A stretch of DNA of 46,375 nucleotides from Escherichia phage N15, in sequence record NC_001901.1; one strand, 5' to 3'. Made by a program: the position numbers and the translations under genes. Below the pieces are notes generated by a model, which saw nothing but the letters and a program-made list of their open reading frames with translations, searched no databases and had not been told where the DNA came from. Below, in pieces: positions 6,018 to 46,375 of this stretch (positions within the stretch are counted from its first letter, which is position 1; each line of letters starts with the position of its first letter).

Positions 6018-7043
6018 ATGTCCGTTTACACCACTGCCCAGCTGCTGGCGGTCAATGAGAAGAAATTCAAATTCGATCCGCTCTTCCTGCGCATCTTTTT
6101 CCGCGAAACTTATCCCTTCAGTACAGAGAAGGTTTACCTGTCGCAAATTCCTGGCCTGGTCAACATGGCGCTGTACGTCTCGCCGATTGTCTCCGGCAAA
6201 GTGATCCGCTCCCGTGGCGGCAGCACGTCTGAATTCACGCCAGGTTATGTGAAGCCGAAACACGAAGTTAACCCACTGATGACTCTTCGCCGCCTGCCGG
6301 ATGAGGATCCACAGAACCTCGCTGACCCGGTCTACCGCCGTCGCCGCATTATCCTCCAGAACATGAAGGATGAAGAGCTGGCGATTGCGCAGGTCGAAGA
6401 GAAGCAGGCTGTTGCGGCGGTACTCAGTGGGAAATACACCATGACCGGGGAAGCGTTCGAGCCTGTTGAAGTTGATATGGGGCGCAGCGCTGGTAACAAC
6501 ATTGTCCAGGCCGGTGCGGCTGCGTGGTCCTCCCGCGACAAAGAAACGTATGACCCGACCGATGACATTGAAGCCTACGCGCTCAACGCCAGCGGTGTGG
6601 TCAACATCATTGTGTTCGATCCGAAGGGCTGGGCGCTGTTCCGTTCCTTCAAGGCAGTGAAGGAGAAACTGGATACGCGTCGAGGCTCTAACTCTGAGCT
6701 GGAAACCGCCCTGAAAGACCTGGGCAAGGCAGTTTCCTACAAGGGGATGTATGGCGATGTGGCCATCGTGGTCTACTCCGGCCAGTACATCGAAAACGAC
6801 GTCAAAAAGAACTATCTGCCAGACCTGACGATGGTCCTGGGTAACACTCAGGCGCGCGGCCTGCGTACCTATGGTTGCATTCTTGATGCCGATGCCCAGC
6901 GAGAAGGTATCAACGCTTCGACGCGTTACCCGAAAAACTGGGTGCAAACGGGCGATCCGGCGCGTGAATTCACCATGATTCAGTCAGCCCCGCTGATGCT
7001 GCTGGCAGACCCGGACGAGTTCGTGTCCGTCAAGCTGGCATAA
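6018..7043 (+). CDS. major capsid protein (lambda gpE-like)
   Basis: 341 aa, same length as lambda E and near-colinear with it (YTTAQLLA...KFKFDPLFLR...GLRTYGCI...MLLADPDEFVSV). Confidence 0.95.
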   Translation: MSVYTTAQLLAVNEKKFKFDPLFLRIFFRETYPFSTEKVYLSQIPGLVNMALYVSPIVSGKVIRSRGGSTSEFTPGYVKPKHEVNPLMTLRRLPDEDPQNLADPVYRRRRIILQNMKDEELAIAQVEEKQAVAAVLSGKYTMTGEAFEPVEVDMGRSAGNNIVQAGAAAWSSRDKETYDPTDDIEAYALNASGVVNIIVFDPKGWALFRSFKAVKEKLDTRRGSNSELETALKDLGKAVSYKGMYGDVAIVVYSGQYIENDVKKNYLPDLTMVLGNTQARGLRTYGCILDADAQREGINASTRYPKNWVQTGDPAREFTMIQSAPLMLLADPDEFVSVKLA

Positions 7044-19854: not shown

Positions 19855-20020
19855 ATTTGTTATTAAAAATGCTATAAGGTAGCATTATGTCGCTGTTGTG
19901 AATCCACCTATGCGGATGGGCGTACAGCTGAGCTATCTCTGATGAGATCGTAAACGAGACCGCGGACTCTTTGGCTGGAGAGTTCACTGGGAGGCACCCA
20001 GCACAACAGCAACCAATTAC

Positions 20021-20047
20021 AAACCCTGCTTCGGCAGGGTTTTTTAT
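20021..20047 (+). terminator. rho-independent terminator
   Basis: accctgcttcggcagggt hairpin followed by T-run. Confidence 0.7.
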
Positions 20048-20065
20048 TGCCCAAAAGGAGGGCAT

Positions 20066-22120: not shown

Positions 22121-23149
22121 CTATTTTTTCTCTTTATTTTTTATAATATTTTCCAACTTATCGAGGTCGCGATTAACCTGCTCAGCTGCACCTAATTCTG
22201 CCTCCAATAACGCTTCTATTTTTTTTATTAAATTAGAGGGTATTTTACGGCTATCTACTTTCAAAGTGACAAAACTACCCTTGTATTTAGCTACAACACC
22301 TTCACCATATTTCTTCTCGGTCTTGGGCATTTCTTCCTTATCGACAAGAATAAAGTCCTGTAGTGCCTGAATAATTCTTGCGGGCTCGAAATCCTCTCCA
22401 GCTTGCTTCATACGAAGCAACTGCTTCGCACCATCGAGCATAGTCTGCTCGTTACCCTTATACACTTTAGATAAAGCATCGCCAGCGCGAGCTGATAGCT
22501 CTCCCGGATGCTTGAAGATAGACAGGATCTCCCTCGGTAATCCGGCGGTATTCATGCAGCGGTTCACGATATTACGGTCGATGCCCTCTGCTTCAGCCAG
22601 GGCTTTAACGTTACCATCAAATTCTTTCAGTCGGCGCAAGTACCGTTTCCCGCGTTCGTATGCACTGGTTGGCCGATAGTCGTTACCCAACTGTGACAAC
22701 TGCTGCATTTGTTCATCATCCAGCTCTCCAACGAGAACCCGATAATCGCTACCAGTGATGATGGCTGTTTTGCGGCGGCGTGAGCCATCGGCAATTTCGA
22801 TAATGCCTGACGTCCTTCTGGCGAACGCGGGGTTCTGCTGTCCTGAAGTGAGGAATGAAGGGATAAGGTCGGCCAGCGCTGATTCGTTCAGCAATTCCTG
22901 ATCACGTTCATTACCGAGCCAAACCATTGTGGCCTTTTCGACTTTATCAGCAGGAATGGTTTCCAGCTTAAAAGTCACGTTGCGGCCGCAAACCGGTAGC
23001 GTAATGCTATTCCCGGACAACGAACTTAATTTGCTCTGTAAGTCGCCAACCATCGGCGAAACCGATGGCGCTTTTTGCGGCGCATTATGGTTATTGCTCA
23101 TGAACGTTTCGATGTTGGGCGCATTTTTTAATATAGAGCGATTCTTCAT
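22121..23149 (-). CDS. sopB: partition protein SopB (ParB family)
   Basis: ITLPVCGR, GNERDQELL, DLIPSF, GIIEIADGSRRRK, GELDDEQM, GNDYRPTSAYERG match F-plasmid SopB; ATG 23149 with GGGAGG RBS. Confidence 0.9.
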   Translation of the reverse strand: MKNRSILKNAPNIETFMSNNHNAPQKAPSVSPMVGDLQSKLSSLSGNSITLPVCGRNVTFKLETIPADKVEKATMVWLGNERDQELLNESALADLIPSFLTSGQQNPAFARRTSGIIEIADGSRRRKTAIITGSDYRVLVGELDDEQMQQLSQLGNDYRPTSAYERGKRYLRRLKEFDGNVKALAEAEGIDRNIVNRCMNTAGLPREILSIFKHPGELSARAGDALSKVYKGNEQTMLDGAKQLLRMKQAGEDFEPARIIQALQDFILVDKEEMPKTEKKYGEGVVAKYKGSFVTLKVDSRKIPSNLIKKIEALLEAELGAAEQVNRDLDKLENIIKNKEKK

Positions 23150-23151
23150 AG

Positions 23152-24315
23152 TTAGTCCTCCCAACGAGGTTTGATTAGATCTTCGAAAATTTCTTTGCAG
23201 ACTGGCTCCCAGATTTCCACTGCATTTCGCCAGGCATTAAGCGTTGAGCGTTGATTTGCTGCTTGCTCAAATACGGTGCGCATCTTGATCTGGCCTTTAC
23301 CAACTTCATCAGTGACCCGCACGACCTGTCGCAAGACCATAGCTCCCCAGGTATTTCGAATCTGCTCCTCCATCCACCGGGACTGATTGCCGTTAGTAAG
23401 GCTGTATTTGGTCAGGAGCAGGCGGACGACAGGTTCAAAGCCGCCCAAATCGACGGTTTCAAGCAGGTCGAGCAGCATGGTGAAAAACTGAAGAACTGAT
23501 GCATAGTCGAACAGCTCTGCAGGGGTTGCTACCACGATGACGTCAGCAGCACAGACAACGTTAATAGTTCCCGTACCCAAGTTTGGCGCGCTGTCTATGA
23601 CGATAATGTCGTAGTTATCCCATACAGACTCGATAGCAGCACGAAGCATCAGATGAGGGGGATGAGGTAGCTTCCCCTCGGAATGGTACTGCATCAGATC
23701 TGTTTCAATGCGGTGAAGGGCCAGGCAGCTGGGGATTATGTCGAGACCCGGCCAGCATGTTGGTTTTATCGCATATTCAGCGTTGTCGCGTTTACCCAGG
23801 TAAAATGGAAGCAGTGTATCGTCTGCGTGAATGTGCAAATCAGGAACGTAACCGTGGTACATAGATGCAGTCCCTTGCGGGTCGTTCCCTTCAACGAGTA
23901 GGACGCGGTGCCCTTGCAAGGCTAACCATTGCGCCTGGTGTACTGCAGATGAGGTTTTATAAACCCCTCCCTTGTGTGACATAACGGAAAGTACAACCGG
24001 GTTTTTATCGTCAGGTCTTTGGTTTGGGTTACCAAACACACTCCGCATATGGCTAATTTGGTCAATTGTGTAGCCAGCGCGACGTTCTACTCGGCCCCTC
24101 ATCTCAAAATCAGGAGCCGGTAGACGACCAGCTTTTTCCGCGTCTCTGATAGCCTGCGGTGTTACGCCGATCAGGTCTGCAACTTCTGTTATACCCCAGC
24201 GGCGAGTAATACGACGCGCTTCCGGGCTGTCATCGCCGAACTGTGCGATGGCAATAGCGCGCGTCATTTCCTGACCGCGATTGATACAGTCTTTCAGCAA
24301 ATTAATTAACGACAT
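23152..24315 (-). CDS. sopA: partition ATPase SopA (ParA family, Walker-type)
   Basis: EMTRAIAIAQF..DDSPEARRITRRW, KGGVYKTS Walker A, near-colinear with F SopA; likely start 24315 (GAGG RBS); ORF extends to 24360. Confidence 0.9.
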   Translation of the reverse strand: MSLINLLKDCINRGQEMTRAIAIAQFGDDSPEARRITRRWGITEVADLIGVTPQAIRDAEKAGRLPAPDFEMRGRVERRAGYTIDQISHMRSVFGNPNQRPDDKNPVVLSVMSHKGGVYKTSSAVHQAQWLALQGHRVLLVEGNDPQGTASMYHGYVPDLHIHADDTLLPFYLGKRDNAEYAIKPTCWPGLDIIPSCLALHRIETDLMQYHSEGKLPHPPHLMLRAAIESVWDNYDIIVIDSAPNLGTGTINVVCAADVIVVATPAELFDYASVLQFFTMLLDLLETVDLGGFEPVVRLLLTKYSLTNGNQSRWMEEQIRNTWGAMVLRQVVRVTDEVGKGQIKMRTVFEQAANQRSTLNAWRNAVEIWEPVCKEIFEDLIKPRWED

Positions 24316-24376
24316 CCTGTTTCCTCTCAAACATGCCCTTATCTTTGTGTTTTTCATCATACTTTACGTTTTTAAA

Positions 24377-24830: not shown

Positions 24831-24994
24831 AGGAGAACATAAGCGCAGAACAATATGTATCTATTCCGGTGTTGTGTTCCTTTGTTATTCTGCTATTATG
24901 TTCTCTTATAGTGTGACGAAAGCAGCATAATTAATCGTCACTTGTTCTTTGATTGTGTTACGATATCCAGAGACTTAGAAACGGGGGAACCGGG

Positions 24995-26890
24995 ATGAGC
25001 AAGGTAAAAATCGGTGAGTTGATCAACACGCTTGTGAATGAGGTAGAGGCAATTGATGCCTCAGACCGCCCACAAGGCGACAAAACGAAGAGAATTAAAG
25101 CCGCAGCCGCACGGTATAAGAACGCGTTATTTAATGATAAAAGAAAGTTCCGTGGGAAAGGATTGCAGAAAAGAATAACCGCGAATACTTTTAACGCCTA
25201 TATGAGCAGGGCAAGAAAGCGGTTTGATGATAAATTACATCATAGCTTTGATAAAAATATTAATAAATTATCGGAAAAGTATCCTCTTTACAGCGAAGAA
25301 TTATCTTCATGGCTTTCTATGCCTACGGCTAATATTCGCCAGCACATGTCATCGTTACAATCTAAATTGAAAGAAATAATGCCGCTTGCCGAAGAGTTAT
25401 CAAATGTAAGAATAGGCTCTAAAGGCAGTGATGCAAAAATAGCAAGACTAATAAAAAAATATCCAGATTGGAGTTTTGCTCTTAGTGATTTAAACAGTGA
25501 TGATTGGAAGGAGCGCCGTGACTATCTTTATAAGTTATTCCAACAAGGCTCTGCGTTGTTAGAAGAACTACACCAGCTCAAGGTCAACCATGAGGTTCTG
25601 TACCATCTGCAGCTAAGCCCTGCGGAGCGTACATCTATACAGCAACGATGGGCCGATGTTCTGCGCGAGAAGAAGCGTAATGTTGTGGTTATTGACTACC
25701 CAACATACATGCAGTCTATCTATGATATTTTGAATAATCCTGCGACTTTATTTAGTTTAAACACTCGTTCTGGAATGGCACCTTTGGCCTTTGCTCTGGC
25801 TGCGGTATCAGGGCGAAGAATGATTGAGATAATGTTTCAGGGTGAATTTGCCGTTTCAGGAAAGTATACGGTTAATTTCTCAGGGCAAGCTAAAAAACGC
25901 TCTGAAGATAAAAGCGTAACCAGAACGATTTATACTTTATGCGAAGCAAAATTATTCGTTGAATTATTAACAGAATTGCGTTCTTGCTCTGCTGCATCTG
26001 ATTTCGATGAGGTTGTTAAAGGATATGGAAAGGATGATACAAGGTCTGAGAACGGCAGGATAAATGCTATTTTAGCAAAAGCATTTAACCCTTGGGTTAA
26101 ATCATTTTTCGGCGATGACCGTCGTGTTTATAAAGATAGCCGCGCTATTTACGCTCGCATCGCTTATGAGATGTTCTTCCGCGTCGATCCACGGTGGAAA
26201 AACGTCGACGAGGATGTGTTCTTCATGGAGATTCTCGGACACGACGATGAGAACACCCAGCTGCACTATAAGCAGTTCAAGCTGGCCAACTTCTCCAGAA
26301 CCTGGCGACCTGAAGTTGGGGATGAAAACACCAGGCTGGTGGCTCTGCAGAAACTGGACGATGAAATGCCAGGCTTTGCCAGAGGTGACGCTGGCGTCCG
26401 TCTCCATGAAACCGTTAAGCAGCTGGTGGAGCAGGACCCATCAGCAAAAATAACCAACAGCACTCTCCGGGCCTTTAAATTTAGCCCGACGATGATTAGC
26501 CGGTACCTGGAGTTTGCCGCTGATGCATTGGGGCAGTTCGTTGGCGAGAACGGGCAGTGGCAGCTGAAGATAGAGACACCTGCAATCGTCCTGCCTGATG
26601 AAGAATCCGTTGAGACCATCGACGAACCGGATGATGAGTCCCAAGACGACGAGCTGGATGAAGATGAAATTGAGCTCGACGAGGGTGGCGGCGATGAACC
26701 AACCGAAGAGGAAGGGCCAGAAGAACATCAGCCAACTGCTCTAAAACCCGTCTTCAAGCCTGCAAAAAATAACGGGGACGGAACGTACAAGATAGAGTTT
26801 GAATACGATGGAAAGCATTATGCCTGGTCCGGCCCCGCCGATAGCCCTATGGCCGCAATGCGATCCGCATGGGAAACGTACTACAGCTAA
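24995..26890 (+). CDS. telN: protelomerase (telomere resolvase, tyrosine-recombinase-like)
   Basis: 631 aa starting MSKVKIGELINTLVNEVEAIDASDRPQGDK, recognised as N15 TelN; acidic C-terminal tail; adjacent to telRL. Confidence 0.95.
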   Translation: MSKVKIGELINTLVNEVEAIDASDRPQGDKTKRIKAAAARYKNALFNDKRKFRGKGLQKRITANTFNAYMSRARKRFDDKLHHSFDKNINKLSEKYPLYSEELSSWLSMPTANIRQHMSSLQSKLKEIMPLAEELSNVRIGSKGSDAKIARLIKKYPDWSFALSDLNSDDWKERRDYLYKLFQQGSALLEELHQLKVNHEVLYHLQLSPAERTSIQQRWADVLREKKRNVVVIDYPTYMQSIYDILNNPATLFSLNTRSGMAPLAFALAAVSGRRMIEIMFQGEFAVSGKYTVNFSGQAKKRSEDKSVTRTIYTLCEAKLFVELLTELRSCSAASDFDEVVKGYGKDDTRSENGRINAILAKAFNPWVKSFFGDDRRVYKDSRAIYARIAYEMFFRVDPRWKNVDEDVFFMEILGHDDENTQLHYKQFKLANFSRTWRPEVGDENTRLVALQKLDDEMPGFARGDAGVRLHETVKQLVEQDPSAKITNSTLRAFKFSPTMISRYLEFAADALGQFVGENGQWQLKIETPAIVLPDEESVETIDEPDDESQDDELDEDEIELDEGGGDEPTEEEGPEEHQPTALKPVFKPAKNNGDGTYKIEFEYDGKHYAWSGPADSPMAAMRSAWETYYS

Positions 26891-28246: not shown

Positions 28247-28411
28247 GGTATGCATTCCTATCTTGTATAGGGTGCTACCACCAGAGTTGAGAATCTCTAT
28301 AGGGGTGGTAGCCCAGACAGGGTTCTCAACACCGGTACAAGAAGAAACCGGCCCAACCGAAGTTGGCCCCATCTGAGCCACCATAATTCAGGTATGCGCA
28401 GATTTAACACA

Positions 28412-28489
28412 CAAAAAAACACGCTGGCGCGTGTTGTGCGCTTCTTGTCATTCGGGGTTGAGAGGCCCGGCTGCAGATTTTGCTGCAGC
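28412..28489 (-). ncRNA. candidate small regulatory RNA / attenuator leader: promoter (TTGACG-18-TAGAGT) followed about 75 nt later by intrinsic terminator
   Basis: -35 at 28525-28520, -10 at 28501-28496, hairpin aacacgc/gcgtgtt + U-run at 28435-28412 on - strand; N15 immA and P4/P1 immunity RNA paradigm. Confidence 0.45.
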
Positions 28490-29885: not shown

Positions 29886-32800
29886 TTATATCGCCACGGC
29901 TTGCCGCTGGCTTAGAAACGCTTTCAGCAGCCTTATTTCGCGTACTGATAGCAGGTCCATAAATTCGGTCATGTACAGCGAGGCGAACGTTCTCGCGATG
30001 CTGGCCACTGGCCACAGGCGTACCGCCTCCATTTCGGTTGCTGGCAACGCGTTCTCCGCCCACGCCTCCGGTACCGCCACCGGGATAGCCTCCAGTGCCT
30101 GGATAATTACTGATTGTGGGGCGTCCGGAACGTGCTCTGTTTTGGATCGAGGGTTACCATGTATATCTATATTTAGATCCAAATCGCGATCCACTTCGAT
30201 GGTGGTTTTTTCCACCTTACGTGCGTGAATTGATAAACCGGCCTCGCGGCGCTTCTCCACGATATTCATGAGGAACTCGACCGAGTCCGGGTCAATGGAA
30301 CGCATCGTGGGGCGTGCATCGCCGTCTCTGGCGCGTCTGGTCTTACTGGATAGCCCCATAGACTCCAGGATGCCTATGCAGAGGTCTGCAGGCGCTTTCT
30401 TCTTGCCTTTCTCTGTGTTGAAGCCGCCGATGCGTAAAACGTTGTTTAGCAGATCGCGCCGTTCCGGCGTGAGCAGGTTATCTCTGGCGCGTTTGAGGGC
30501 GTCCATGTCTGCTTCACCTTCCAGGGTTTTTGGATCGATACCGCAGTCGCGGAAGTACTGCTGCAGCGTCGCCGATTTGAGGGTGTAGAAACCACGCATG
30601 CCTATCTCAACAGCAGGGGTCGATTTCACTCGGTAATCGGTTATGGCCGGGAATTTAGCCTGGAACTCTGCGTCGGCCTGTTCCCGCGTCATGGCCGTAG
30701 TGACGAACTGCTGCCATCTTCCGGCAACGCGATAAGCGTAGGTAAAGTGAATCAACGCTTCTTCACGGTCAAGGCGACGGGCGGTTATCTCATCCAGCTG
30801 CATGGTTTCAAACAGGCGCACTTTTTTCAGGCCGCCGTCGAAATAGAATTTTAACGCCACCTCGTCGACATCCAGCTGCAGCTCCTTTTCGATGTCCCAG
30901 CGGACCAGCTGGGCCTGCTCATCCAGGGACAGGGTGCGTTTTTTTATCAACTCATCGTGTTCGGCCTGGTCAGGAGTATCGACACTCAGGTGGCGCTCCA
31001 TAAGCTGCTCAAAGACCAGTTCACGGGCTTCTTTACGTAAATCCTTACCGATGCTGTTTGCAAGCGCGTCGGTGGCCATAGGCGCGACCTGATAGCCATC
31101 ATCATGCATGATGCAAATCATGTTGCTGGCATAATCATTTCTGGCCGATGCCTCGAGCGCGGCGGCTTTAATTTTGAGCTGCATGAATGAAGAGTTAGCC
31201 ACGCCGAGTGAAATTCGGTCACCGTCAAAGACAACGTCTGTCAGCAGCCCGGAGTGGCCAGCCGTTTCGAGCAAGGCCTGCGCGTAGGCGCGTTTGATTT
31301 TTTCCGGATCGGTTTCACGTTTACCGCGAAGCTTGTCGAAACCGATAATGTATTCCTGAGCTGTACGGTCGCGGCGCAGCATCTGGATGGCGTCGCTGGG
31401 GACCACTTCGCCGCAGAACATGCCGAAATGGCGGTGGAAGTGTTTCTCCTCAATCGATACACCTGAAGATATCGACGGGCTGTAGATGAGGCCGTCATAT
31501 TTTTTCACCATCACTTTAGGCTGGTTGGTGAAATCGTCGACTTCCTTCTCCTGTTTGTTTTTCTGGTTAACGCAGAGAAACTTTTTGTCAGGGAACTGTA
31601 GTCTCAGCTGCATGGTAACGTCTTCGGCGAACGTCGAACTGTCGGTGGCCAGCATGATTCGTTCGCCGCGTTGCACTGCAGCGATAACCTCGGTCATGAT
31701 CCGATTTTTCTCGGTATAAAATACGCGGATAGGCTTGTTGGTTTCGCGGTTGCGAACGTCGACCGGGAGTTCAATCACGTGAATTTGCAGCCAGGCAGGT
31801 AGGCCCAGCTCCTCGCGTCGCTTCATCGCCAGTTCAGCCAGGTCAACAAGCAGATCGTTGGCATCGGCATCCACCATAATGGCATGCTCTTCAGTACGCG
31901 CCAGCGCGTCGATAAGCGTGTTGAATACGCCTACCGGGTTTTCCATCGCACGCCCGGCCAGAATGGCACGCAGGCCCTGTGTTGCTTCATCGAAGCCGAA
32001 GAAGTCATGCTGGCGCATCAGCGGTTGCCAGCAGCCTTTAAGTATGGAGTTGATGCAAATAGTCAGCTTGTTGGCATATGGCGCCATTTCCTGATAGCCG
32101 GGATCCTGATAATGCAGAATGTCGGCTTTCGCGCCTTTCCCTTCGGTCATCATTTCATGCAGGCCGCCTATCAGGGATACGCGGTGCGCGACGGAAACGC
32201 CACGCGTGGACTGCAGCATCAGTGGACGCAGGAGGCCTGTCGATTTACCCGACCCCATCCCGGCGCGGACAATAACGATGCCCTGCAGCTGTGCGGCGTA
32301 TGTCATCACCTCATCGGTCATCCTGGAGGTTTCAAACCGTTTGTAAGTGATGTGTGACGGGCGAAGGTTCGGGTTGGTGATGCGTTCACTGAACGAACGT
32401 GATGTTTGCGCGGCACGGCATTTGCGATTCAACCGGCGCGTAATGTGATCTTTAACGGTACCGTTATAAATTTCTGCGATACCCATATCCCGCAGCGTGC
32501 TGCTGAAAAGGCGCATAAGTTCTTTCGGGCTGTTTGGTACCGGGCATGTCAGCATGCCAATATCAACGGCGCGAAGCAGTTCTTTGGCAAAAGTGCGTCT
32601 GTTCAGACGCGGGAGAGTACGCAGCTTATTCAGCGTGATCGACAACAGGTCGGTTGCACGGCTCAGATGATTTCTCGTTAACTGGCGAGCGACTTCCTTC
32701 AGCCCTCTCAGGCTGTGCAGGTCGTTAAAATCGCTGCATTCCAGCTCAGGGTCATCCTCAAAAGTTGGGTAAACACATTTGACGCCGGAAAACTTCTCCA

Positions 32801-33860
32801 TGATGTCGAATCCGGTGCGGAGGCCTGTGTTGCCTTTTCCTTCAGCTGAGGATTTGCGGTCGTTATCGAGAGCGCAAGTGATTTGCGCAGCCGGGTACAT
32901 GTTCACCAGCTGCTCGACAACGTGAATCATGTTGTTAGCGGAAACCGCAATGACTACCGCGTCAAAGCGTTTTTTCGGGTCGTTTCTGGTCGCCAGCCAG
33001 ATGGATGCCCCGGTGGCGAAACCCTCTGCAGTCGCAATTTTTTGCGCCCCCTGCAGGTCGCCAATAACAAAGCATGCACCGACGAAATCACCGTTAGTGA
33101 TGGCGCTGGTCTGGAACTTGCCACCATTCAGATCGATACGTTGCCAGCCAACAATCCGCCCGTCTTTTCTTCCGTCCAGGTGGGACAGAGGTATCGCCAT
33201 GTAAGTTGTTGGTCCACGGCTCCATTTCGCACTGTCGTGACTGGTCACGCGACGTATATCACAAGCGCCAAATACGTCACGAATTCCCTTTTTTACCGCA
33301 TAAGGCCAGGAGCCATCTTCAGCTGGCGAATGTTCCCAGGCGCGATGGAAAGCCAACCATCCAAGCAGGCGTTCCTGCTCCATCTGATTGTTTTTTAAAT
33401 CATTAACGCGTTGTTGTTCAGCTCGGAGGCGGCGTGCTTCAGCCTGGCGCTCCATGCGTGCACGTTCTTCTTCCGGCTGAGCGACCACGGTCGCACCATT
33501 CCGTTGCTGTTCACGGCGATACTCCGAAAACAGGAATGAAAAGCCACTCCAGGAGCCAGCGTCATGCGCTTTTTCAACGAAGTTAACGAAAGGATAACTG
33601 ATGCCATCCTTGCTCTGCTCAAGGCGTGAATAGATTTCCACACGGCCTTTAAGGCTCTTCTGCAGAGCTTCCGGGGAGGAATTATTGTAGGTGGTATAGC
33701 GCTCTACACCACCGCGCGGATTGAGCTGAATCTTATCAGCACACGCAGGCCAGTTGATACCGGCCATCTTCGCCAGCTCAGTCAGCTCATCACGTGCCGC
33801 GTCAAGCAGTGAAAACGGATCGCTGCCAAAGCGCTCCGCGTAGAATTCTTGTAAGGTCAT
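29886..33860 (-). CDS. repA: replication protein RepA, multidomain primase-helicase
   Basis: 1324 aa; Walker A GMGSGKST; size and position (downstream of cB) as N15 RepA. Confidence 0.9.
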   Translation of the reverse strand: MTLQEFYAERFGSDPFSLLDAARDELTELAKMAGINWPACADKIQLNPRGGVERYTTYNNSSPEALQKSLKGRVEIYSRLEQSKDGISYPFVNFVEKAHDAGSWSGFSFLFSEYRREQQRNGATVVAQPEEERARMERQAEARRLRAEQQRVNDLKNNQMEQERLLGWLAFHRAWEHSPAEDGSWPYAVKKGIRDVFGACDIRRVTSHDSAKWSRGPTTYMAIPLSHLDGRKDGRIVGWQRIDLNGGKFQTSAITNGDFVGACFVIGDLQGAQKIATAEGFATGASIWLATRNDPKKRFDAVVIAVSANNMIHVVEQLVNMYPAAQITCALDNDRKSSAEGKGNTGLRTGFDIMEKFSGVKCVYPTFEDDPELECSDFNDLHSLRGLKEVARQLTRNHLSRATDLLSITLNKLRTLPRLNRRTFAKELLRAVDIGMLTCPVPNSPKELMRLFSSTLRDMGIAEIYNGTVKDHITRRLNRKCRAAQTSRSFSERITNPNLRPSHITYKRFETSRMTDEVMTYAAQLQGIVIVRAGMGSGKSTGLLRPLMLQSTRGVSVAHRVSLIGGLHEMMTEGKGAKADILHYQDPGYQEMAPYANKLTICINSILKGCWQPLMRQHDFFGFDEATQGLRAILAGRAMENPVGVFNTLIDALARTEEHAIMVDADANDLLVDLAELAMKRREELGLPAWLQIHVIELPVDVRNRETNKPIRVFYTEKNRIMTEVIAAVQRGERIMLATDSSTFAEDVTMQLRLQFPDKKFLCVNQKNKQEKEVDDFTNQPKVMVKKYDGLIYSPSISSGVSIEEKHFHRHFGMFCGEVVPSDAIQMLRRDRTAQEYIIGFDKLRGKRETDPEKIKRAYAQALLETAGHSGLLTDVVFDGDRISLGVANSSFMQLKIKAAALEASARNDYASNMICIMHDDGYQVAPMATDALANSIGKDLRKEARELVFEQLMERHLSVDTPDQAEHDELIKKRTLSLDEQAQLVRWDIEKELQLDVDEVALKFYFDGGLKKVRLFETMQLDEITARRLDREEALIHFTYAYRVAGRWQQFVTTAMTREQADAEFQAKFPAITDYRVKSTPAVEIGMRGFYTLKSATLQQYFRDCGIDPKTLEGEADMDALKRARDNLLTPERRDLLNNVLRIGGFNTEKGKKKAPADLCIGILESMGLSSKTRRARDGDARPTMRSIDPDSVEFLMNIVEKRREAGLSIHARKVEKTTIEVDRDLDLNIDIHGNPRSKTEHVPDAPQSVIIQALEAIPVAVPEAWAENALPATEMEAVRLWPVASIARTFASLYMTEFMDLLSVREIRLLKAFLSQRQAVAI

Positions 33861-34798: not shown

Positions 34799-35014
34799 AT
34801 GAAACCCGAAGAACTTGTGCGCCATTTCGGCGATGTGGAAAAAGCAGCGGTTGGCGTGGGCGTGACACCCGGCGCAGTCTATCAATGGCTGCAAGCTGGG
34901 GAGATTCCACCTCTACGACAAAGCGATATAGAGGTCCGTACCGCGTACAAATTAAAGAGTGATTTCACCTCTCAGCGCATGGGTAAGGAAGGGCATAACA
35001 GTGGAACTAAATAG
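34799..35014 (+). CDS. cro: Cro-like repressor
   Basis: 71 aa, divergent from cB, HTH GVTPGAVYQWLQAG. Confidence 0.75.
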   Translation: MKPEELVRHFGDVEKAAVGVGVTPGAVYQWLQAGEIPPLRQSDIEVRTAYKLKSDFTSQRMGKEGHNSGTK

Positions 35015-35747
35015 CATTCGGGCCTGTGTATCTACGGCTCTGTCAGATATTCATTATCTCCAGCGCGGCATCCTTGAGGTCCAGCTGGAGCAGCTGCGTC
35101 TCGCAAGCTCTGACCGTTTCACTGACAAACCAACCAGAACGATCTGCATCGGCGATACGGAATCTTATGAAATCTCTGTGCCTGCCGAACCCGTTCGTTA
35201 TCACGTTGGTAAATCCTTCAAACGGTCTTCAATGCTGCTGACTGAATTAGATTTCATGACCGCCAGCTGGCGACGTGCCATTGAGCAGTTAAACAGTGAA
35301 GAAACTGCATGGTTGCATTATTGCTATGGATGCAAACCAAATTATAAGAATGATGTAACTGTTTGCCAGTGGCTGTGGATGGATTTTTTAATTGCGCATT
35401 CCAGAGCGGGCTTTAAAAAAATGAAAGCCCCAACAAAAAAAATTATGCAGAGATTAACTTACTACGGAATACAGCAAGTTAAATGTGAAATATTTCACGA
35501 ACTGCATGATTCGGATATTGATGGAATGGAGCGAGACGAACACATAAGTTCTTTAGTGGGTGTATCCGTCGAAAGCTGGCGTAAGGATTATAAAAAACGC
35601 TGGTTATTACTGAAATCACGATGCATGCATCTTAACGATACCGCGTTATTAAATGCGGCGGAGAAGCGCTGTGAAATCATCGAAAGCCATCGTGCAAGAA
35701 GTGCCGACCTGCCTGTGTCAGCAGGTTATGCTCAGGAAACCAGATAA
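35001..35747 (+). CDS. putative late-gene antiterminator (Q-like by position); start uncertain (GTG 35001 with AAGGAAGGG RBS, or ATG 34959)
   Basis: Position immediately after cro as in lambdoid phages; Cys cluster CYGC...C; no motif-level confirmation possible. Confidence 0.4.
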   Translation: MELNSIRACVSTALSDIHYLQRGILEVQLEQLRLASSDRFTDKPTRTICIGDTESYEISVPAEPVRYHVGKSFKRSSMLLTELDFMTASWRRAIEQLNSEETAWLHYCYGCKPNYKNDVTVCQWLWMDFLIAHSRAGFKKMKAPTKKIMQRLTYYGIQQVKCEIFHELHDSDIDGMERDEHISSLVGVSVESWRKDYKKRWLLLKSRCMHLNDTALLNAAEKRCEIIESHRARSADLPVSAGYAQETR

Positions 35748-35973
35748 GCCTGTACTCCGGTACTCTGGCCTCCGTAACGAGTACATCATCTGGTGCCCGA
35801 CATGCGGCTATCGGACTCTTCCTGACAGTAACAGGCAATCCGTAATTACTGAATGGTATTTATCAAATCAACCAGGCAACAAGCATATAGAAAATATCTG
35901 GCTCAAACGTTATCTGGAAATCAAAGAGGGTGCGACCTCGGTCGCACGAGATAATGAAGAATACTCCATTTAA
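35719..35973 (+). CDS. possible small protein with CPTC motif; contains centromere-like palindrome in its 3' end
   Basis: 85-aa ORF, weak RBS; coding status uncertain. Confidence 0.25.
   Translation, partial: QQVMLRKPDKPVLRYSGLRNEYIIWCPTCGYRTLPDSNRQSVITEWYLSNQPGNKHIENIWLKRYLEIKEGATSVARDNEEYSI
35930..35947. repeat. centromere-like palindrome GTGCGACCTCGGTCGCAC (SopB-binding site candidate)
   Basis: One of three copies of GTGCGACC-NN-GGTCGCAC in the window. Confidence 0.7.
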
Positions 35974-39831: not shown

Positions 39832-39866
39832 AAAAGGGAAAGGCGAGATACCCTCGCCTTTCCCTT
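39827..39866. terminator. bidirectional terminator (12-bp stem) between + strand small gene and - strand toxin-antitoxin operon
   Basis: gggaaaggcgag / ctcgcctttccc stem with A-run upstream. Confidence 0.65.
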
Positions 39867-39895: not shown

Positions 39896-40183
39896 TCAAT
39901 ACACAGCATGAATATCAATGCTTGCACCGCAAGCCTTAGCGTATCGAGATAGTGTCTTCATGCTGGCACCTAGTGGGTTGCTTTCCAGGCGGCTAATTGC
40001 TGATGGCTGCAACCCCATGCGTTCAGCCAGCGCAGACTTCGTCAGGCCAGCTTTCTCCCTCATCTCGTAGAGCATTTCAACCATCGCCAACTCCTTGTCG
40101 GCATCTTCGTAACCCCGGATAGCCTCCGGGGTATTGAGCAGTTCTTCTTTCACCTGATTAAATGGGATGCCTTTTACTTTCAT
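39896..40183 (-). CDS. HTH (XRE-family) antitoxin, HigA-like
   Basis: 95 aa; LTKSALAERMGLQPSAISRLE HTH; ATG overlaps toxin stop (TAATG). Confidence 0.75.
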   Translation of the reverse strand: MKVKGIPFNQVKEELLNTPEAIRGYEDADKELAMVEMLYEMREKAGLTKSALAERMGLQPSAISRLESNPLGASMKTLSRYAKACGASIDIHAVY

Positions 40184-40494
40184 TAGCTCATCTCCTTCAG
40201 ACGCGTTCTGGCGATATCAATTGCGTGGGTAGGCGTCTTTTGCGTCTTCTTAACAAATGCATGTAGCAGATAAATTTCGTTACCTACCGCGTAAGCGTAC
40301 AGCGTTCTCGCTATGTTTTTATCCCCTACCCTTAGTTCGAAAAGGCCACCACCGATAACGCGGCTATGAGGCATTTTCAGCTTGTTCCCTTCACTTTCCA
40401 GTCTCTCGATCAGCCGGGTCATGCGACCGCGTAGCTCATCAGGTAATTCTTTAAGCTCATCCAGCGCTGCCGGGTGGGTTATCACGTTAAACAT
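40183..40494 (-). CDS. RelE/ParE-superfamily toxin, HigB-like (toxin-first operon)
   Basis: 103 aa from ATG 40494 with AGGAGG RBS; LKMPHSRVIGGGLFELRV...LYAYAVGNEIYLLHAFVKKTQKTP typical of this family. Confidence 0.75.
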   Translation of the reverse strand: MFNVITHPAALDELKELPDELRGRMTRLIERLESEGNKLKMPHSRVIGGGLFELRVGDKNIARTLYAYAVGNEIYLLHAFVKKTQKTPTHAIDIARTRLKEMS

Positions 40495-40554
40495 AGTATA
40501 ACCTCCTGATGTGGAAAATATACTAAAAACGTAAAAATCACACAATAGGCAAAT

Positions 40555-40570
40555 TTCACTAAAAAGTGAA
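40555..40570. promoter_or_regulatory. palindrome TTCACTAAAAAGTGAA upstream of toxin-antitoxin promoter (operator candidate)
   Basis: 5-bp inverted arms; candidate -35 TTGTGT / -10 TATATT on - strand just downstream. Confidence 0.45.
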
Positions 40571-40660
40571 AAATAAAGCTGGATGTGCTTATTGGGCAGA
40601 GTTACAGTTTGTGTCGTTGAGAGGGGTAAAGCCCATAACCGCATGAATCTGGAGTAAATT

Positions 40661-40891: not shown

Positions 40892-41119
40892 ATGCACGCG
40901 AAAGAAATACGCCGGAATATGACCGAAGAAGCGTTAAGCGTTGAGTTCGTAATGCGTGGGCATCCACGCATTAGCCTGGCAGAGCTGAGTGAAGCCTGCC
41001 GCTTAAGCCAGGCATCAACAGAGTTTATTATTGAGCAGATGGTTTGTTTTGGTGTGGCGCGGCGCGGCGCTTTCGGAAGATACTCACTAACAAACGAGTA
41101 TGAAAACGGAATAATCTGA
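40892..41119 (+). CDS. hypothetical protein (75 aa)
   Basis: RBS AAGGAGG. Confidence 0.55.
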   Translation: MHAKEIRRNMTEEALSVEFVMRGHPRISLAELSEACRLSQASTEFIIEQMVCFGVARRGAFGRYSLTNEYENGII

Positions 41120-41123
41120 TATC

Positions 41124-41141
41124 GTGCGACCATGGTCGCAC
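41124..41141. repeat. centromere-like perfect palindrome GTGCGACCATGGTCGCAC
   Basis: Perfect 18-bp palindrome (20 bp with flanking C/G). Confidence 0.75.
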
Positions 41142-41161
41142 GGAATAGAAAACGAAAAAGG

Positions 41162-41190
41162 TTGGCAAAACAGCTATTTTTAGGTATCTT
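41162..41190 (+). promoter_or_regulatory. candidate promoter TTGGCA-17-TATCTT (possible late promoter)
   Basis: Good -35/-10 match with 17-bp spacer; intrinsic terminator about 40 nt downstream, as in lambdoid PR'/tR' units. Confidence 0.45.
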
Positions 41191-41226
41191 TTTTCTAAGT
41201 TGGGATTTTTACGCCTGACTTCCGAA

Positions 41227-41251
41227 TAACCGCCTACGGGCGGTTTTTTTG
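41227..41251 (+). terminator. rho-independent terminator (tR'-like)
   Basis: accgcctacgggcggt hairpin + T7. Confidence 0.7.
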
Positions 41252-41386
41252 TGCCTGAAAAAGTGGGCGCGGGACGAGTTGCAGCTCATCCCGCGGTCAA
41301 CCCATGCCAGAGGTATAGGCTGAACCCAAAGCCCACCCGCGATGCGCATCGCTGGGTTAGCTTACCCAGGCAGAACCATAATAGCT

Positions 41387-42475
41387 ATGTTAAAAACTAC
41401 ACAAATCAATGGAGCGCAGCTCGTTTGCGCAGATTCTCTGCAATTCATAAAAACCATCCCTGATAATTCCGTAAACCTGATCGCGACAGACCCGCCCTAT
41501 TTTGGCGTTAAGTCGAACGACTGGGACAACCAGTGGGAAAGTGACGCGGACTTTTTGGGCTGGCTTGATGAGTTTCTGGCGGAGTTCTGGAGGATACTGG
41601 CCCCAAATGGAAGCCTGTATATGTTTTCCGGTTCGCGGCTTGCGGCAAAAGTTGAATTACTTACCCGCGACCGTTTCAATGTTTTGAACCACATCACCTG
41701 GGCTAAACCGAGCGGTGTATGGCGGCGGCAAAATAAAGAGAGCCTGCGAGCATTCTTCCCGGCAACCGAGCGCATCATATTCGCTGAACATTACGGCGCG
41801 TCTGGCTATGCGAAAGGTCAGTCGGGTTATGCCAGCAAATGTGCAGAGTTGCGGAAAGACGTATTTTCTCCGTTGATTGGAGCATTTGCATCAGCCCGAC
41901 AGCAGCTGGGGATTTCAGCTGCGGACATCAACGCTGCGACAGGGAAAAAGATGTGTTCACACTGGTTTTCCTCGTCGCAGTGGCAGTTACCGTCGCTGGA
42001 TGACTTCAACAAGCTGCATGAGCTGTTTATGCAGCGGGCGCAAGTTCTCGGCGTAGCATGTCCTCCGCCATTCGATATCGGGTATAGCGAGCATGAAAAG
42101 CAGTATGCCGATCTAAAAACGCAATACGATGCGGTTAAAGCGCAATACGATGGCCTTAAGGCTCAGTATGAAAGCCTGCGCCGCCCGTTCTCTGTGACTG
42201 CAGATGTTCCCTATACGGATGTTTGGGAGTTCCCACCGGTGCAGTATTACCCAGGGAAACACCCGTGCGAGAAGCCAGCTGCGATGATGGAACATATCAT
42301 CAGGAGCAGCTCTCGCCCCGGCGATGTAGTCGCCGACTTCTTCATGGGGTCCGGTAGTACGATTAAGGAGGCTCTGAAGCTTGGGCGTAAGGCCATAGGC
42401 GTAGAAATTGAAGAAGAGCGTTACCTGCAGACAGTAGAAGAAGTTAAAGAAGTAGTAAAAAAAGAAGAGAGTTGA
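41387..42475 (+). CDS. DNA N6-adenine methyltransferase (beta-class, DPPY before FxGxG)
   Basis: NLIATDPPYF (motif IV) precedes DFFMGSGST (motif I); start uncertain (41342 or 41387). Confidence 0.8.
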   Translation: MLKTTQINGAQLVCADSLQFIKTIPDNSVNLIATDPPYFGVKSNDWDNQWESDADFLGWLDEFLAEFWRILAPNGSLYMFSGSRLAAKVELLTRDRFNVLNHITWAKPSGVWRRQNKESLRAFFPATERIIFAEHYGASGYAKGQSGYASKCAELRKDVFSPLIGAFASARQQLGISAADINAATGKKMCSHWFSSSQWQLPSLDDFNKLHELFMQRAQVLGVACPPPFDIGYSEHEKQYADLKTQYDAVKAQYDGLKAQYESLRRPFSVTADVPYTDVWEFPPVQYYPGKHPCEKPAAMMEHIIRSSSRPGDVVADFFMGSGSTIKEALKLGRKAIGVEIEEERYLQTVEEVKEVVKKEES

Positions 42476-42488
42476 TCTCACTTATACA

Positions 42489-42512
42489 ACCCGCCTCTGG
42501 CGGGTTTTTTAT
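42489..42512 (+). terminator. rho-independent terminator after methyltransferase
   Basis: cccgcctctggcggg hairpin + T6. Confidence 0.7.
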
Positions 42513-42609: not shown

Positions 42610-42915
42610 ATGAGAATGAACGATCACTCAGGGAACATCTTCACGCAATTATTTGCGTGGCTTGGAACCATAGCTGCAGCGCTGGGTTTTACCACCCAAG
42701 ACATGATTTACATGTTTTTCGGGGCTGTGGGGCTTCTAATCTCCCTTGCATCCTTCATCAACGGAAGAATTGATGCACGCCGCCGTCGGAAAGAAGATGA
42801 GAAGCGAACGGCAATGATAAGGGCTTACCTGGAAGAAGTTAGCGATAAGCCTATCGAAGAACGTCCGACAGCGGTGAGCGTAGTAGCGGATGTACTCGCT
42901 AAGGCAGGCGAGTGA
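42610..42915 (+). CDS. holin (two TMDs, dual-start MRM motif)
   Basis: Two hydrophobic helices, charged C-terminus, Met-Arg-Met N-terminus; first gene of lysis cassette. Confidence 0.7.
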   Translation: MRMNDHSGNIFTQLFAWLGTIAAALGFTTQDMIYMFFGAVGLLISLASFINGRIDARRRRKEDEKRTAMIRAYLEEVSDKPIEERPTAVSVVADVLAKAGE

Positions 42916-43451
42916 TGGCTAACAGGGCAAAATTAAGCGCAGCCGTTCTAAGTTTGATTCTTGCTGGCGCGTCAGCCCCACAAATTCTCGACCAGTTTTT
43001 GGATGAGAAAGAGGGAAATAGCCTTACTGCTTACAAAGATGGCAGCGGCATCTGGACGATATGCCGTGGTGCCACAATGGTTGATGGCAAGCCAGTAATG
43101 CAGGGCATGAAGTTGACGCAGGCCAAATGCAATCAGGTAAACGCCATCGAACGCAATAAGGCTCTTGCGTGGGTTGACCGCAATATCAAAGTTCCTCTGA
43201 CCGAACCGCAGAAAGCCGGTATCGCATCTTTCTGCCCGTACAACATAGGCCCAGGCAAATGCTTCCCATCGACGTTCTATAAGCGTCTTAATGCTGGCGA
43301 CCGCCACGGGGCTTGTGAGGCGATCCGATGGTGGATAAAGGATGGTGGCCGCGACTGTCGACTGACCAAGGGCCAGAAGAATGGATGCTATGGGCAAGTT
43401 GAGCGGCGTGACCAGGAAAGTGCGTTGACGTGCTGGGAGATAGACCAGTGA
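42915..43451 (+). CDS. SAR endolysin, T4-lysozyme-like (GH24)
   Basis: N-terminal weakly hydrophobic Ala/Gly/Ser-rich signal-anchor; catalytic E...D...T in EGNSLTAYKDGSGIWT; phage 21 R-like. Confidence 0.85.
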   Translation: MANRAKLSAAVLSLILAGASAPQILDQFLDEKEGNSLTAYKDGSGIWTICRGATMVDGKPVMQGMKLTQAKCNQVNAIERNKALAWVDRNIKVPLTEPQKAGIASFCPYNIGPGKCFPSTFYKRLNAGDRHGACEAIRWWIKDGGRDCRLTKGQKNGCYGQVERRDQESALTCWEIDQ

Positions 43452-43993
43452 ATCCGTCCCCATTAATCGCAGCAATAAAAGCCTGGTGGAAGCCTTTATT
43501 CGTGCTGATTTTTGCGGCCAGCGCGTTTATCGCTGGCAATGTCTGGAGCAACAGGGCATGGGAAAAAAGGTGGGCTGACCGTGATAGTGCTGAGTCCTCG
43601 CAAAAGGTCAACGCGCAGACAGCCGCCAGAATGATAGAGCAAGGGCGAATTATTGCCCGTGATGAGGCCGTAAAGAATGCCAAAGAGAAAGCAGCTGCCG
43701 CGCGTGATGCTTCTGCTCGTTTGGCTGGCACTGTTAGTCAGCTGCAGCAACAGGCAAGAAAACTCGCTACCCGCCTGGACGCCGCAAAGCACACCGCAGA
43801 TCTTGCCGCTGCCGTCAGAGGCAAAACAGCCGGAGCCAACGCTGCAGTGCTCGCCGACATGCTCGGAAGTCTTGCAGCAGAAGCTAAATATTATGCTGAA
43901 CGATCTGACGAAAGCTATCGAGCAGGAATGACCTGCCAGCGTATTTATGACTCGGTTAGAGAGTCAAATAACCAATCTGGAGCCTCGCAATAG
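43430..43993 (+). CDS. Rz-like inner-membrane spanin (i-spanin)
   Basis: N-terminal TMD then Ala/Gln/Arg-rich coiled coil; GTG start (43430 or 43448) overlapping endolysin end. Confidence 0.7.
   Translation: MLGDRPVNPSPLIAAIKAWWKPLFVLIFAASAFIAGNVWSNRAWEKRWADRDSAESSQKVNAQTAARMIEQGRIIARDEAVKNAKEKAAAARDASARLAGTVSQLQQQARKLATRLDAAKHTADLAAAVRGKTAGANAAVLADMLGSLAAEAKYYAERSDESYRAGMTCQRIYDSVRESNNQSGASQ
43677..43931 (+). CDS. Rz1-like outer-membrane lipoprotein spanin embedded in +1 frame of Rz (start 43677 or 43707)
   Basis: Lipobox LLVSC after hydrophobic leader; Pro-rich mature part; embedded in Rz. Confidence 0.6.
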   Translation: MPKRKQLPRVMLLLVWLALLVSCSNRQENSLPAWTPQSTPQILPLPSEAKQPEPTLQCSPTCSEVLQQKLNIMLNDLTKAIEQE

Positions 43994-45560: not shown

Positions 45561-45578
45561 GTGCGACCACGGTCGCAC
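45561..45578. repeat. centromere-like palindrome GTGCGACCACGGTCGCAC
   Basis: Third copy of GTGCGACC-NN-GGTCGCAC. Confidence 0.7.
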
Positions 45579-46363: not shown

Positions 46364-46375
46364 GGGCGGCGTCCG
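46364..46375. other. cos right end; 12 nt identical to window start
   Basis: gggcggcgtccg at both termini. Confidence 0.8.

Follow-up and report, generated by a model that had tools for sequence, protein, structure and literature searches.

Comparative sequence analysis of a very probable late-gene control region in Escherichia phage N15, with a SopB-binding site, a promoter and a terminator within 130 bp

The lambda pR'/qut/tR' unit resembles the N15 locus considered here in comprising a sigma70 promoter with a -10-like hexamer right after the -10 and then GGG, as well as an intrinsic terminator before the late genes through which the Q protein permits read-through. The terminated pR' RNA of lambda is far longer than the approximately 56 nt expected in N15. 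The lambda pR' pause involves the -10-like element, GGG at +7-9 and downstream sequence, with sigma70 holding the polymerase at +16 (PMC5001585), and Q proteins load on RNA polymerase engaged in a promoter-proximal pause (PMC5001585, PMC9388147). The Q protein of lambda is from a different family (PF03589) and is encoded right beside pR', whereas N15 Q belongs to PF06323 and is encoded remotely; moreover, lambda, unlike N15, has no centromere site. Phages 82 and 434 share the Q family of N15 (PF06323, 26-27% identity), known as the Q82 family (PMC9388147), and the terminator tail of N15, T7-8 (A/G)TGCC, resembles those of 434 and Phi06_2987; unlike in the N15 layout, the pause element of phage 82 is placed another 9 bp downstream, with pausing at +25 (PMC5001585). 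The Q gene of phage 82 adjoins its promoter, whereas that of N15 is remote, unlike in every classical cassette. To our knowledge, no binding-element consensus has been defined for the Q82 family.

The centromere of the F plasmid, sopC, is likewise an inverted repeat bound by SopB/ParB protein; however, its copies are tandem and lie beside sopAB, whereas the N15 sites are single and dispersed, two of them flanking the gap between Q and the late promoter. Use of a ParB-family site for gene control is represented by KorB of RK2, a ParB-type protein that influences transcription. For N15, the late promoter p52 has reportedly been confirmed with Northern blots and lacZ fusions, antitermination by Q is said to have been shown, and terminators are said to lie between p52 and the first ORF. 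Lysis is reportedly delayed in ir2 and ir3 mutants, and p52::lacZ expression in ir3 mutants is said to be lower, not higher. The 5.4-kb gap between Q and the promoter was reportedly taken up in the same work as an oddity. The title of that paper states that late gene expression is facilitated by the N15 Sop system (Ravin, Rech, Lane, 2008, J Bacteriol 190:3538), and its IR3, p52 and terminators are the same DNA as that analyzed here, with no difference. We conclude that the 130-bp stretch starting at 41124 is very probably the late-gene control region of N15, consisting of a SopB-binding site, the late promoter and a terminator. The original prediction, a candidate late promoter unit, was thus right, yet the region had already been published and experimentally characterized. 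What the present analysis adds is comparative and drawn from sequence only: a pause-element candidate, a possible helical phasing of the centromere site, and a structured leader RNA.

The window analyzed is the whole stretch of 46,375 nucleotides (Escherichia phage N15, NC_001901.1), and all coordinates refer to it. Its first and last 12 bases (1-12 and 46364-46375) are identical, GGGCGGCGTCCG, as would follow from the cohesive end having been written twice. Three matches at the Rfam gathering level were also observed: C4 antisense RNA (28301-28388, minus strand, 78.8 bits) and isrK (28414-28489, minus strand, 62.4 bits), both located between telN and repA, and STnc100 (19863-20048, plus strand, 72.5 bits). 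The features of the partition system, together with the protelomerase and Q genes, are as follows.

22121..24360, minus strand: sopB (22121-23164; PF18090, SopB HTH) and sopA (23152-24360; ParA-type ATPase domains PF13614 and PF01656)
24953-26890: protelomerase gene, found by domain search
33479..33496: IR1, centromere copy within the long minus-strand ORF 29886-33860 (palindrome scan and published oligonucleotide)
35001..35747, plus strand: gene of the Q antiterminator, phage-82 Q family (longest ORF from 34959; PF06323, E 1.4e-110)
35930..35947: IR2, centromere copy 183 bp past the Q stop codon (palindrome scan and published oligonucleotide)
41123..41142: IR3, SopB-binding centromere palindrome with a perfect 18-bp core at 41124-41141 (match to published oligonucleotide)
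45561..45578: IR4, centromere copy in the right arm (palindrome scan and published oligonucleotide)

The palindrome at 41124-41141 had been described as perfect and as a centromere site, and both statements hold. It is the 18-mer GTGCGACCATGGTCGCAC, part of a longer 20-bp form (CGTGCGACCATGGTCGCACG), and, flanks included, it is identical to N15 IR3: 37 of 38 bases agree with the published oligonucleotide f3t, the sole mismatch being the engineered 5' end of the latter. A scan of the whole window with up to 3 mismatches permitted revealed four copies (at 33479, 35930, 41124 and 45561), each with at most 2 mismatches, vs. 0.02 expected from shuffled controls, and all four with their flanks match the oligonucleotides for N15 centromere sites IR1-IR4 (PMC7205306, Table 4). 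In its natural form IR1 is imperfect (GAGCGACC...); GTGCGACC is the reading in the published oligonucleotide. The ORF that contains IR1 is, by synteny, the counterpart of the phiKO2 replicase gene, the Pfam match being weak. Over 300 bp around IR2, the window and the partial N15 record U45242 align at 99%; IR2 reads GGCTG-AC in that old record and GGTCGCAC in the window, probably due to an early sequencing error. The features of a SopABC-type (type Ia) partition system are present, namely the SopA and SopB genes and an inverted-repeat site repeated in four copies. A tandem cluster of sites beside sopAB, as in F sopC, is absent: the copies are found at 33.5, 35.9, 41.1 and 45.6 kb, with sopAB at 22-24 kb.

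The gene previously called Q-like and placed 5.4 kb away proved to be a genuine Q. The ORF 34959-35747 shares 99.6% identity with the Q 'antiterminator' annotated in N15 record U45242 and 27% with phage 82 Q; among solved structures, none is similar in sequence to the N15 protein. Q does not lie immediately upstream of the promoter, the 5,415 bp between its stop (35747) and the -35 being occupied by early-region genes and a minus-strand toxin-antitoxin-like pair. This pair (39896-40644, minus strand) comprises a Gp49-like gene (PF05973) and an HTH gene, breaks the run of plus-strand genes from Q to the late promoter, and is followed by a strong 15-bp minus-strand terminator (39834-39866). The stretch just after Q was scanned for a rival promoter-plus-terminator pair on the plus strand, and none was found. 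A putative Q binding site was sought as a motif common to the late promoters of N15, 434 and Phi06_2987, but nothing was shared beyond TTGCAA and the terminator tail.

The elements between IR3 and the end of the terminator are listed below.

41151..41161, plus strand: A-rich stretch AACGAAAAAGG directly 5' of the -35, possibly a proximal UP-like element
41162..41190, plus strand: late promoter p52, -35 TTGGCA (41162-41167), 17-bp spacer, -10 TATCTT (41185-41190) (scan and register in relatives)
41196..41211, plus strand: candidate sigma70-dependent pause element, TAAGTT, GGG and AT-rich ATTTTTA (invariance and lambda pR' layout)
41197..41221, plus strand: predicted 5' hairpin H0 of the nascent transcript, AAGUUGGG / CCUGACUU (fold)
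41228..41252, plus strand: intrinsic terminator T1, tR'-like, stem 41228-41245 and T7 41246-41252 (scan and fold)

The claim of a strong promoter at 41162-41190 stands as to the site, with 9 of 12 consensus matches; its strength is unproven by the hexamers alone, because such matches are no rarer than chance (three promoter-like sites found in a 6-kb region vs. 5.8 expected). Likewise, the hairpin and T7 terminator are present, one base downstream of the position first assigned (41228-41252 instead of 41227-41251). T1 has a 7-bp stem with five G-C pairs, a 4-nt loop and then T7; its fold at -14.3 kcal/mol (z = -3.7) was not equaled by any of 200 shuffled sequences, while terminator-like sites in the 6-kb region occur at chance frequency (7 found vs. 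6.8 expected). The promoter and terminator calls, made at the sequence level, have real support from conservation across relatives and not from motif rarity. All relatives have a TAnnnT -10 hexamer at a fixed register, preceded at a distance of 17 bp by a -35-like hexamer, and the T1 stem (CCGCC/GGCGG) and T7 are invariant, the loop being variable. In the A-rich stretch, which is possibly a proximal UP-like element, GAAAAAG is kept in the N15 and Klebsiella clades.

Five bases past the -10 lies a block TA(A/T/C)GTTGG that is invariant in the aligned N15-like relatives, with GGG in N15. Transcription is predicted to start near 41197 (about 41196-41198), which would place the terminator hairpin from about +32 and the end of the T run at about +56. 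With such a start, the N15 layout TAAGTT-GGG-ATTTTTA matches the geometry of lambda pR' and not that of phage 82, and the TAAGTT-GGG block is a candidate for a sigma70-dependent pause element. Its invariance may have two causes, because the block also forms one arm of the RNA hairpin H0. H0 pairing variants read from the alignments differ by clade (GUUGGG/CCCAAC, GUUGG/CCAAC and GUUGGC/GCUAAC), the N15 hairpin contains G-U wobbles on the plus strand, and the pairing, as far as can be judged by eye, seems to be retained through the changes across clades.

Upstream and downstream of the control region the following features were identified.

40892-41119: gp51, small wHTH gene (phrog_331)
41258..41392, plus strand: structured leader RNA, helices P1-P4, running through the methylase start codon (covariance model)
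41387..42475, plus strand: gene 52, DNA adenine methyltransferase, the first gene of the late transcript (PF01555, E 3e-50; PHROG 'DNA methyltransferase')
42488..42512, plus strand: second intrinsic terminator, in the gap between gene 52 and the holin gene (scan; terminator annotated at the homologous position in phiKO2)
42610..43993, plus strand: lysis cassette, with holin (42610-42915), lysozyme (42912-43451) and Rz-like DUF2514 (43430-43993) genes

More plus-strand ORFs follow the Rz-like gene up to the cos end, and the long ORFs at 567-21478, also on the plus strand, were taken as structural genes. The gene layout, all on the plus strand, is consistent with the proposal that the late transcript runs through the methyltransferase gene, the lysis cassette and cos into the head and tail genes. 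The likeness to a lambdoid PR'/qut/tR' unit, as originally suggested, is supported by the identity of IR3, the genuine Q gene, the order of the downstream genes and the annotation of phiKO2.

In phiKO2 (GenBank AY374448) a 'putative plasmid partitioning site', a 'putative late promoter' (-35 and -10) and a 'terminator' are annotated, with a second terminator past gene 52. The order is the same as in N15 (gp51 gene, partition site, -35, -10, terminator, methylase, second terminator) at about 78% identity over the unit; the loop and leader sequences differ from those of N15, and the phiKO2 labels are 'putative' and based on sequence. The late unit was also found in 14 phage records, 215 PLSDB plasmids (mostly from Klebsiella) and about 50 IMG/VR contigs, and in each of the N15-like relatives examined the methylase gene is preceded by the trio of palindrome, promoter and terminator. 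Among the aligned clades, which diverge by 20-40% elsewhere, the promoter register, the -35 spacing and TA(A/T/C)GTTGG are kept. A Klebsiella pneumoniae plasmid (NZ_CP137410, L086:560-975) retains the palindrome, the promoter, the TATGTTGGG block and the terminator, while the methylase and most of the leader are absent and a different small gene and another terminator come next; therefore, the four retained elements make up a unit of their own. One IMG/VR contig (3300036846_000707, L032:~6250-6370) has unrelated sequence, perhaps inserted, in place of the palindrome, the promoter and the terminator's 5' half, while the leader and the terminator's 3' half are intact. A pattern scan of representative genomes yielded almost entirely chance matches, two being real (one on a Pseudocitrobacter contig, the other on one labelled 'Limoniibacter' that bears a Klebsiella-type leader), and a search for related loci with the mEp460 methylase returned near-identical loci only and added no diversity.

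The positions of the centromere copies relative to Q and to the late promoter are shared by relatives with different palindromes. In N15, IR2 follows the Q stop by 183 bp and IR3 precedes the -35 by 19-20 bp; in phiKO2, one annotated partition site is situated 183 bp after Q and a second before the late promoter; in PY54, one centromere copy is found 228 bp after the Q stop and another before the late promoter. A second centromere type is represented by the PY54 palindrome, TTGGGACC-NN-GGTCCCAA, in which the two arms have changed symmetrically relative to N15 (this type was seen at L089:10976-10993, L087:~655-672 and in L013). As PY54 keeps both positions despite the changed palindrome, it provides independent support for a functional tie between the partition site and Q-dependent late expression. 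The gap between the palindrome and the -35 is 8 bp in PY54 types vs. 19-20 bp in N15 types, the difference being approximately one helical turn.

The unit is read here as a Q-utilization cassette, and the following sequence of events is proposed. The sigma70 holoenzyme would start at p52 near 41197, approximately 20 bp downstream of IR3, and the TAAGTT-GGG-AT-rich run would then hold the polymerase in a promoter-proximal pause via sigma70. N15 Q, encoded 5.4 kb upstream, would load on the paused complex. Without Q, transcription would stop at the hairpin and T7 (41228-41252), yielding an RNA of approximately 56 nt, and with Q it would read through T1, the leader, gene 52, the second terminator (42488-42512), the lysis genes and cos into the head and tail genes. 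Occupancy of IR3 and IR2 by SopB would raise late expression, the likely route being pairing of IR2 with IR3, which would unite the Q gene with its target promoter.

It is unlikely that SopB at IR3 is mainly a silencer, nucleated 20 bp before the -35 and spreading over p52 so as to keep the late promoter quiet in the prophage, which would make IR3 a repressor operator and not an aid to Q. The palindrome does lie near the -35 in all clades, whether the gap is 8 bp (PY54 types) or 19-20 bp (N15 types), an assay of SopB-mediated silencing has been described (PMC7205306), and, with the terminator alone already limiting leakage, an extra layer of control is plausible; however, the 2008 paper credits the Sop system in its title with facilitating late expression (Ravin, Rech, Lane, 2008), and the second conserved site right after Q fits pairing better than local silencing. 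It is decidedly improbable that the main product is the terminated RNA of approximately 56 nt, acting through H0 and the terminator hairpin as a small regulatory RNA to which late read-through is secondary. Two hairpins are indeed predicted in such a transcript (-20.4 kcal/mol, z = -3.3), and the H0 pairing is, by eye, apparently kept across clades. The short lambda pR' transcript is similar to it in outline, which also counts in favor of a small RNA. Nevertheless, no Rfam family matches this transcript, the conserved H0 bases coincide with the pause element and are explained equally well by it, and such an RNA would in any case be compatible with a late-promoter role.

The hairpin and T7 could instead terminate transcription of the upstream genes 50-51, the promoter-like hexamers being incidental. 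In phiP27, mEp460 and Phi06_2987 a hairpin does occur directly after the homologous wHTH gene with no promoter between them, and the hexamer match by itself is at chance level. This explanation is nevertheless highly improbable given that the promoter register, the -35 spacing and TA(A/T/C)GTTGG are conserved across clades that are 20-40% different elsewhere, that the methylase-less Klebsiella plasmid keeps the palindrome, promoter, pause block and terminator, and that the annotators of phiKO2 made the same promoter call. The probability that the three motifs came together by chance is vanishingly small: promoter-like and terminator-like motifs are individually common, but four palindrome copies were found vs. 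0.02 expected and the same arrangement recurs in 215 plasmids and 14 phage records, so that chance is refuted by conservation. The late-gene control region thus remains the preferred reading. Within it, two further possibilities were considered jointly and are held only tentatively, as a pair on the doubtful side: either the leader is an undescribed cis-regulatory RNA, or SopB at IR3 touches RNA polymerase directly. A face-specific contact between SopB and the polymerase is conceivable because the 8-bp and 19-20-bp spacings differ by about one helical turn.

The 135 nt from the terminator to the methylase start contain invariant blocks between stems with compensatory changes. A covariance model built solely from lambdoid, Morganella and Hafnia sequences matched N15 at 41258-41392 (43.5 bits, E 8e-9), as well as all N15-like relatives, Serratia OS31, Vibrio MAR and Aeromonas ARM81ld. 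In the leader alignment, standard pairs made up 91.4% of cells, compared to 66.9% in shuffled alignments and 34-56% with the 3' partner slid by 1-3 columns; 26 of 30 pairs were changed on both sides (19.3 shuffled, 7-16 slid); and the covariation score was 0.573 vs. 0.169 in shuffled alignments, none of 500 reaching the observed value, and 0.043-0.173 in slid ones. These pair statistics are somewhat inflated, the alignment having been fitted to the model. From a MAFFT alignment, in which the stems were out of register, RNAalifold retrieved the invariant P1 helix alone; the covariance model resolved this problem. An Rfam search over 40900-41600 produced no hit near the gathering score (best E 0.1, RNAI, 22 bits vs. 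a gathering score of 47), and the scan of the whole window gave no gathering-level match within 41258-41392. Counterparts of the leader were located at L091:1367-1506, L092:1366-1506, L090:1367-1506, L173:588-715 and L177:508-648, and the leader is always ahead of the same methylase, in N15-like, lambdoid, Serratia, Morganella, Hafnia, Vibrio and Aeromonas phages.

A hairpin within the leader (41268-41295) was flagged by the scan as a minus-strand terminator. Read on the plus strand, every non-Watson-Crick position of this hairpin is C-A in N15-like sequences; the minus-strand assignment was rejected because lambdoid homologs show U-G/G-U at these positions on the plus strand and no conserved minus-strand promoter was seen. 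The center of helix P2, in the same segment, has a non-Watson-Crick step in every case: N15-like phages have C-A/A-C there, lambdoid phages U-G/G-U, Hafnia U-U and Phi06_2987 a bulge. Hence, at this position it is the irregularity that is conserved, rather than the sequence.

By eye, gene 52 has no obvious Shine-Dalgarno sequence, which makes translational control the leading guess for the function of the leader; the RNA might gate methylase translation in response to the protein encoded by the wHTH gene or to a ligand. The small wHTH gene, in turn, may be a methylase regulator. It precedes the leader-methylase pair in N15-like phages and in most of the lambdoid and other enterobacterial phages examined (also at L092:1153-1350 and L091:1147-1350); its stop codon lies within or beside a hairpin, and in phiP27 it is annotated as a 'TrmB family regulator'. 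In Aeromonas phiARM81ld, a 'Com-like translational regulator' is annotated beside the homologous methylase.

In SfV, Morganella IME1369_02, Hafnia yong2 and Phi06_2987 the gene order is Q, terminator, wHTH gene, approximately 150 bp, methylase (56-58% identity) and lysis genes. Given this lambdoid order of Q, terminator, wHTH gene, leader, methylase and lysis genes, the N15 unit is the usual Q82-type late cassette moved off Q. On this comparison, what is changed in N15 is that Q is 5.4 kb apart and that the promoter and terminator are placed between the wHTH gene (gp51) and the methylase leader.

The analysis rediscovered a published case in which a plasmid partition system helps a phage antiterminator to reach a promoter 5 kb off, and the recovery of this known unit from sequence alone shows that the initial interpretation was sound. 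The structured RNA in front of a widespread phage DNA methylase gene, which is well supported and matches no Rfam family, may merit specialist attention. Finally, the arrangement of one centromere copy after Q and another before the late promoter has been kept in these phages despite a change in the palindrome sequence itself, which independently backs the published model.
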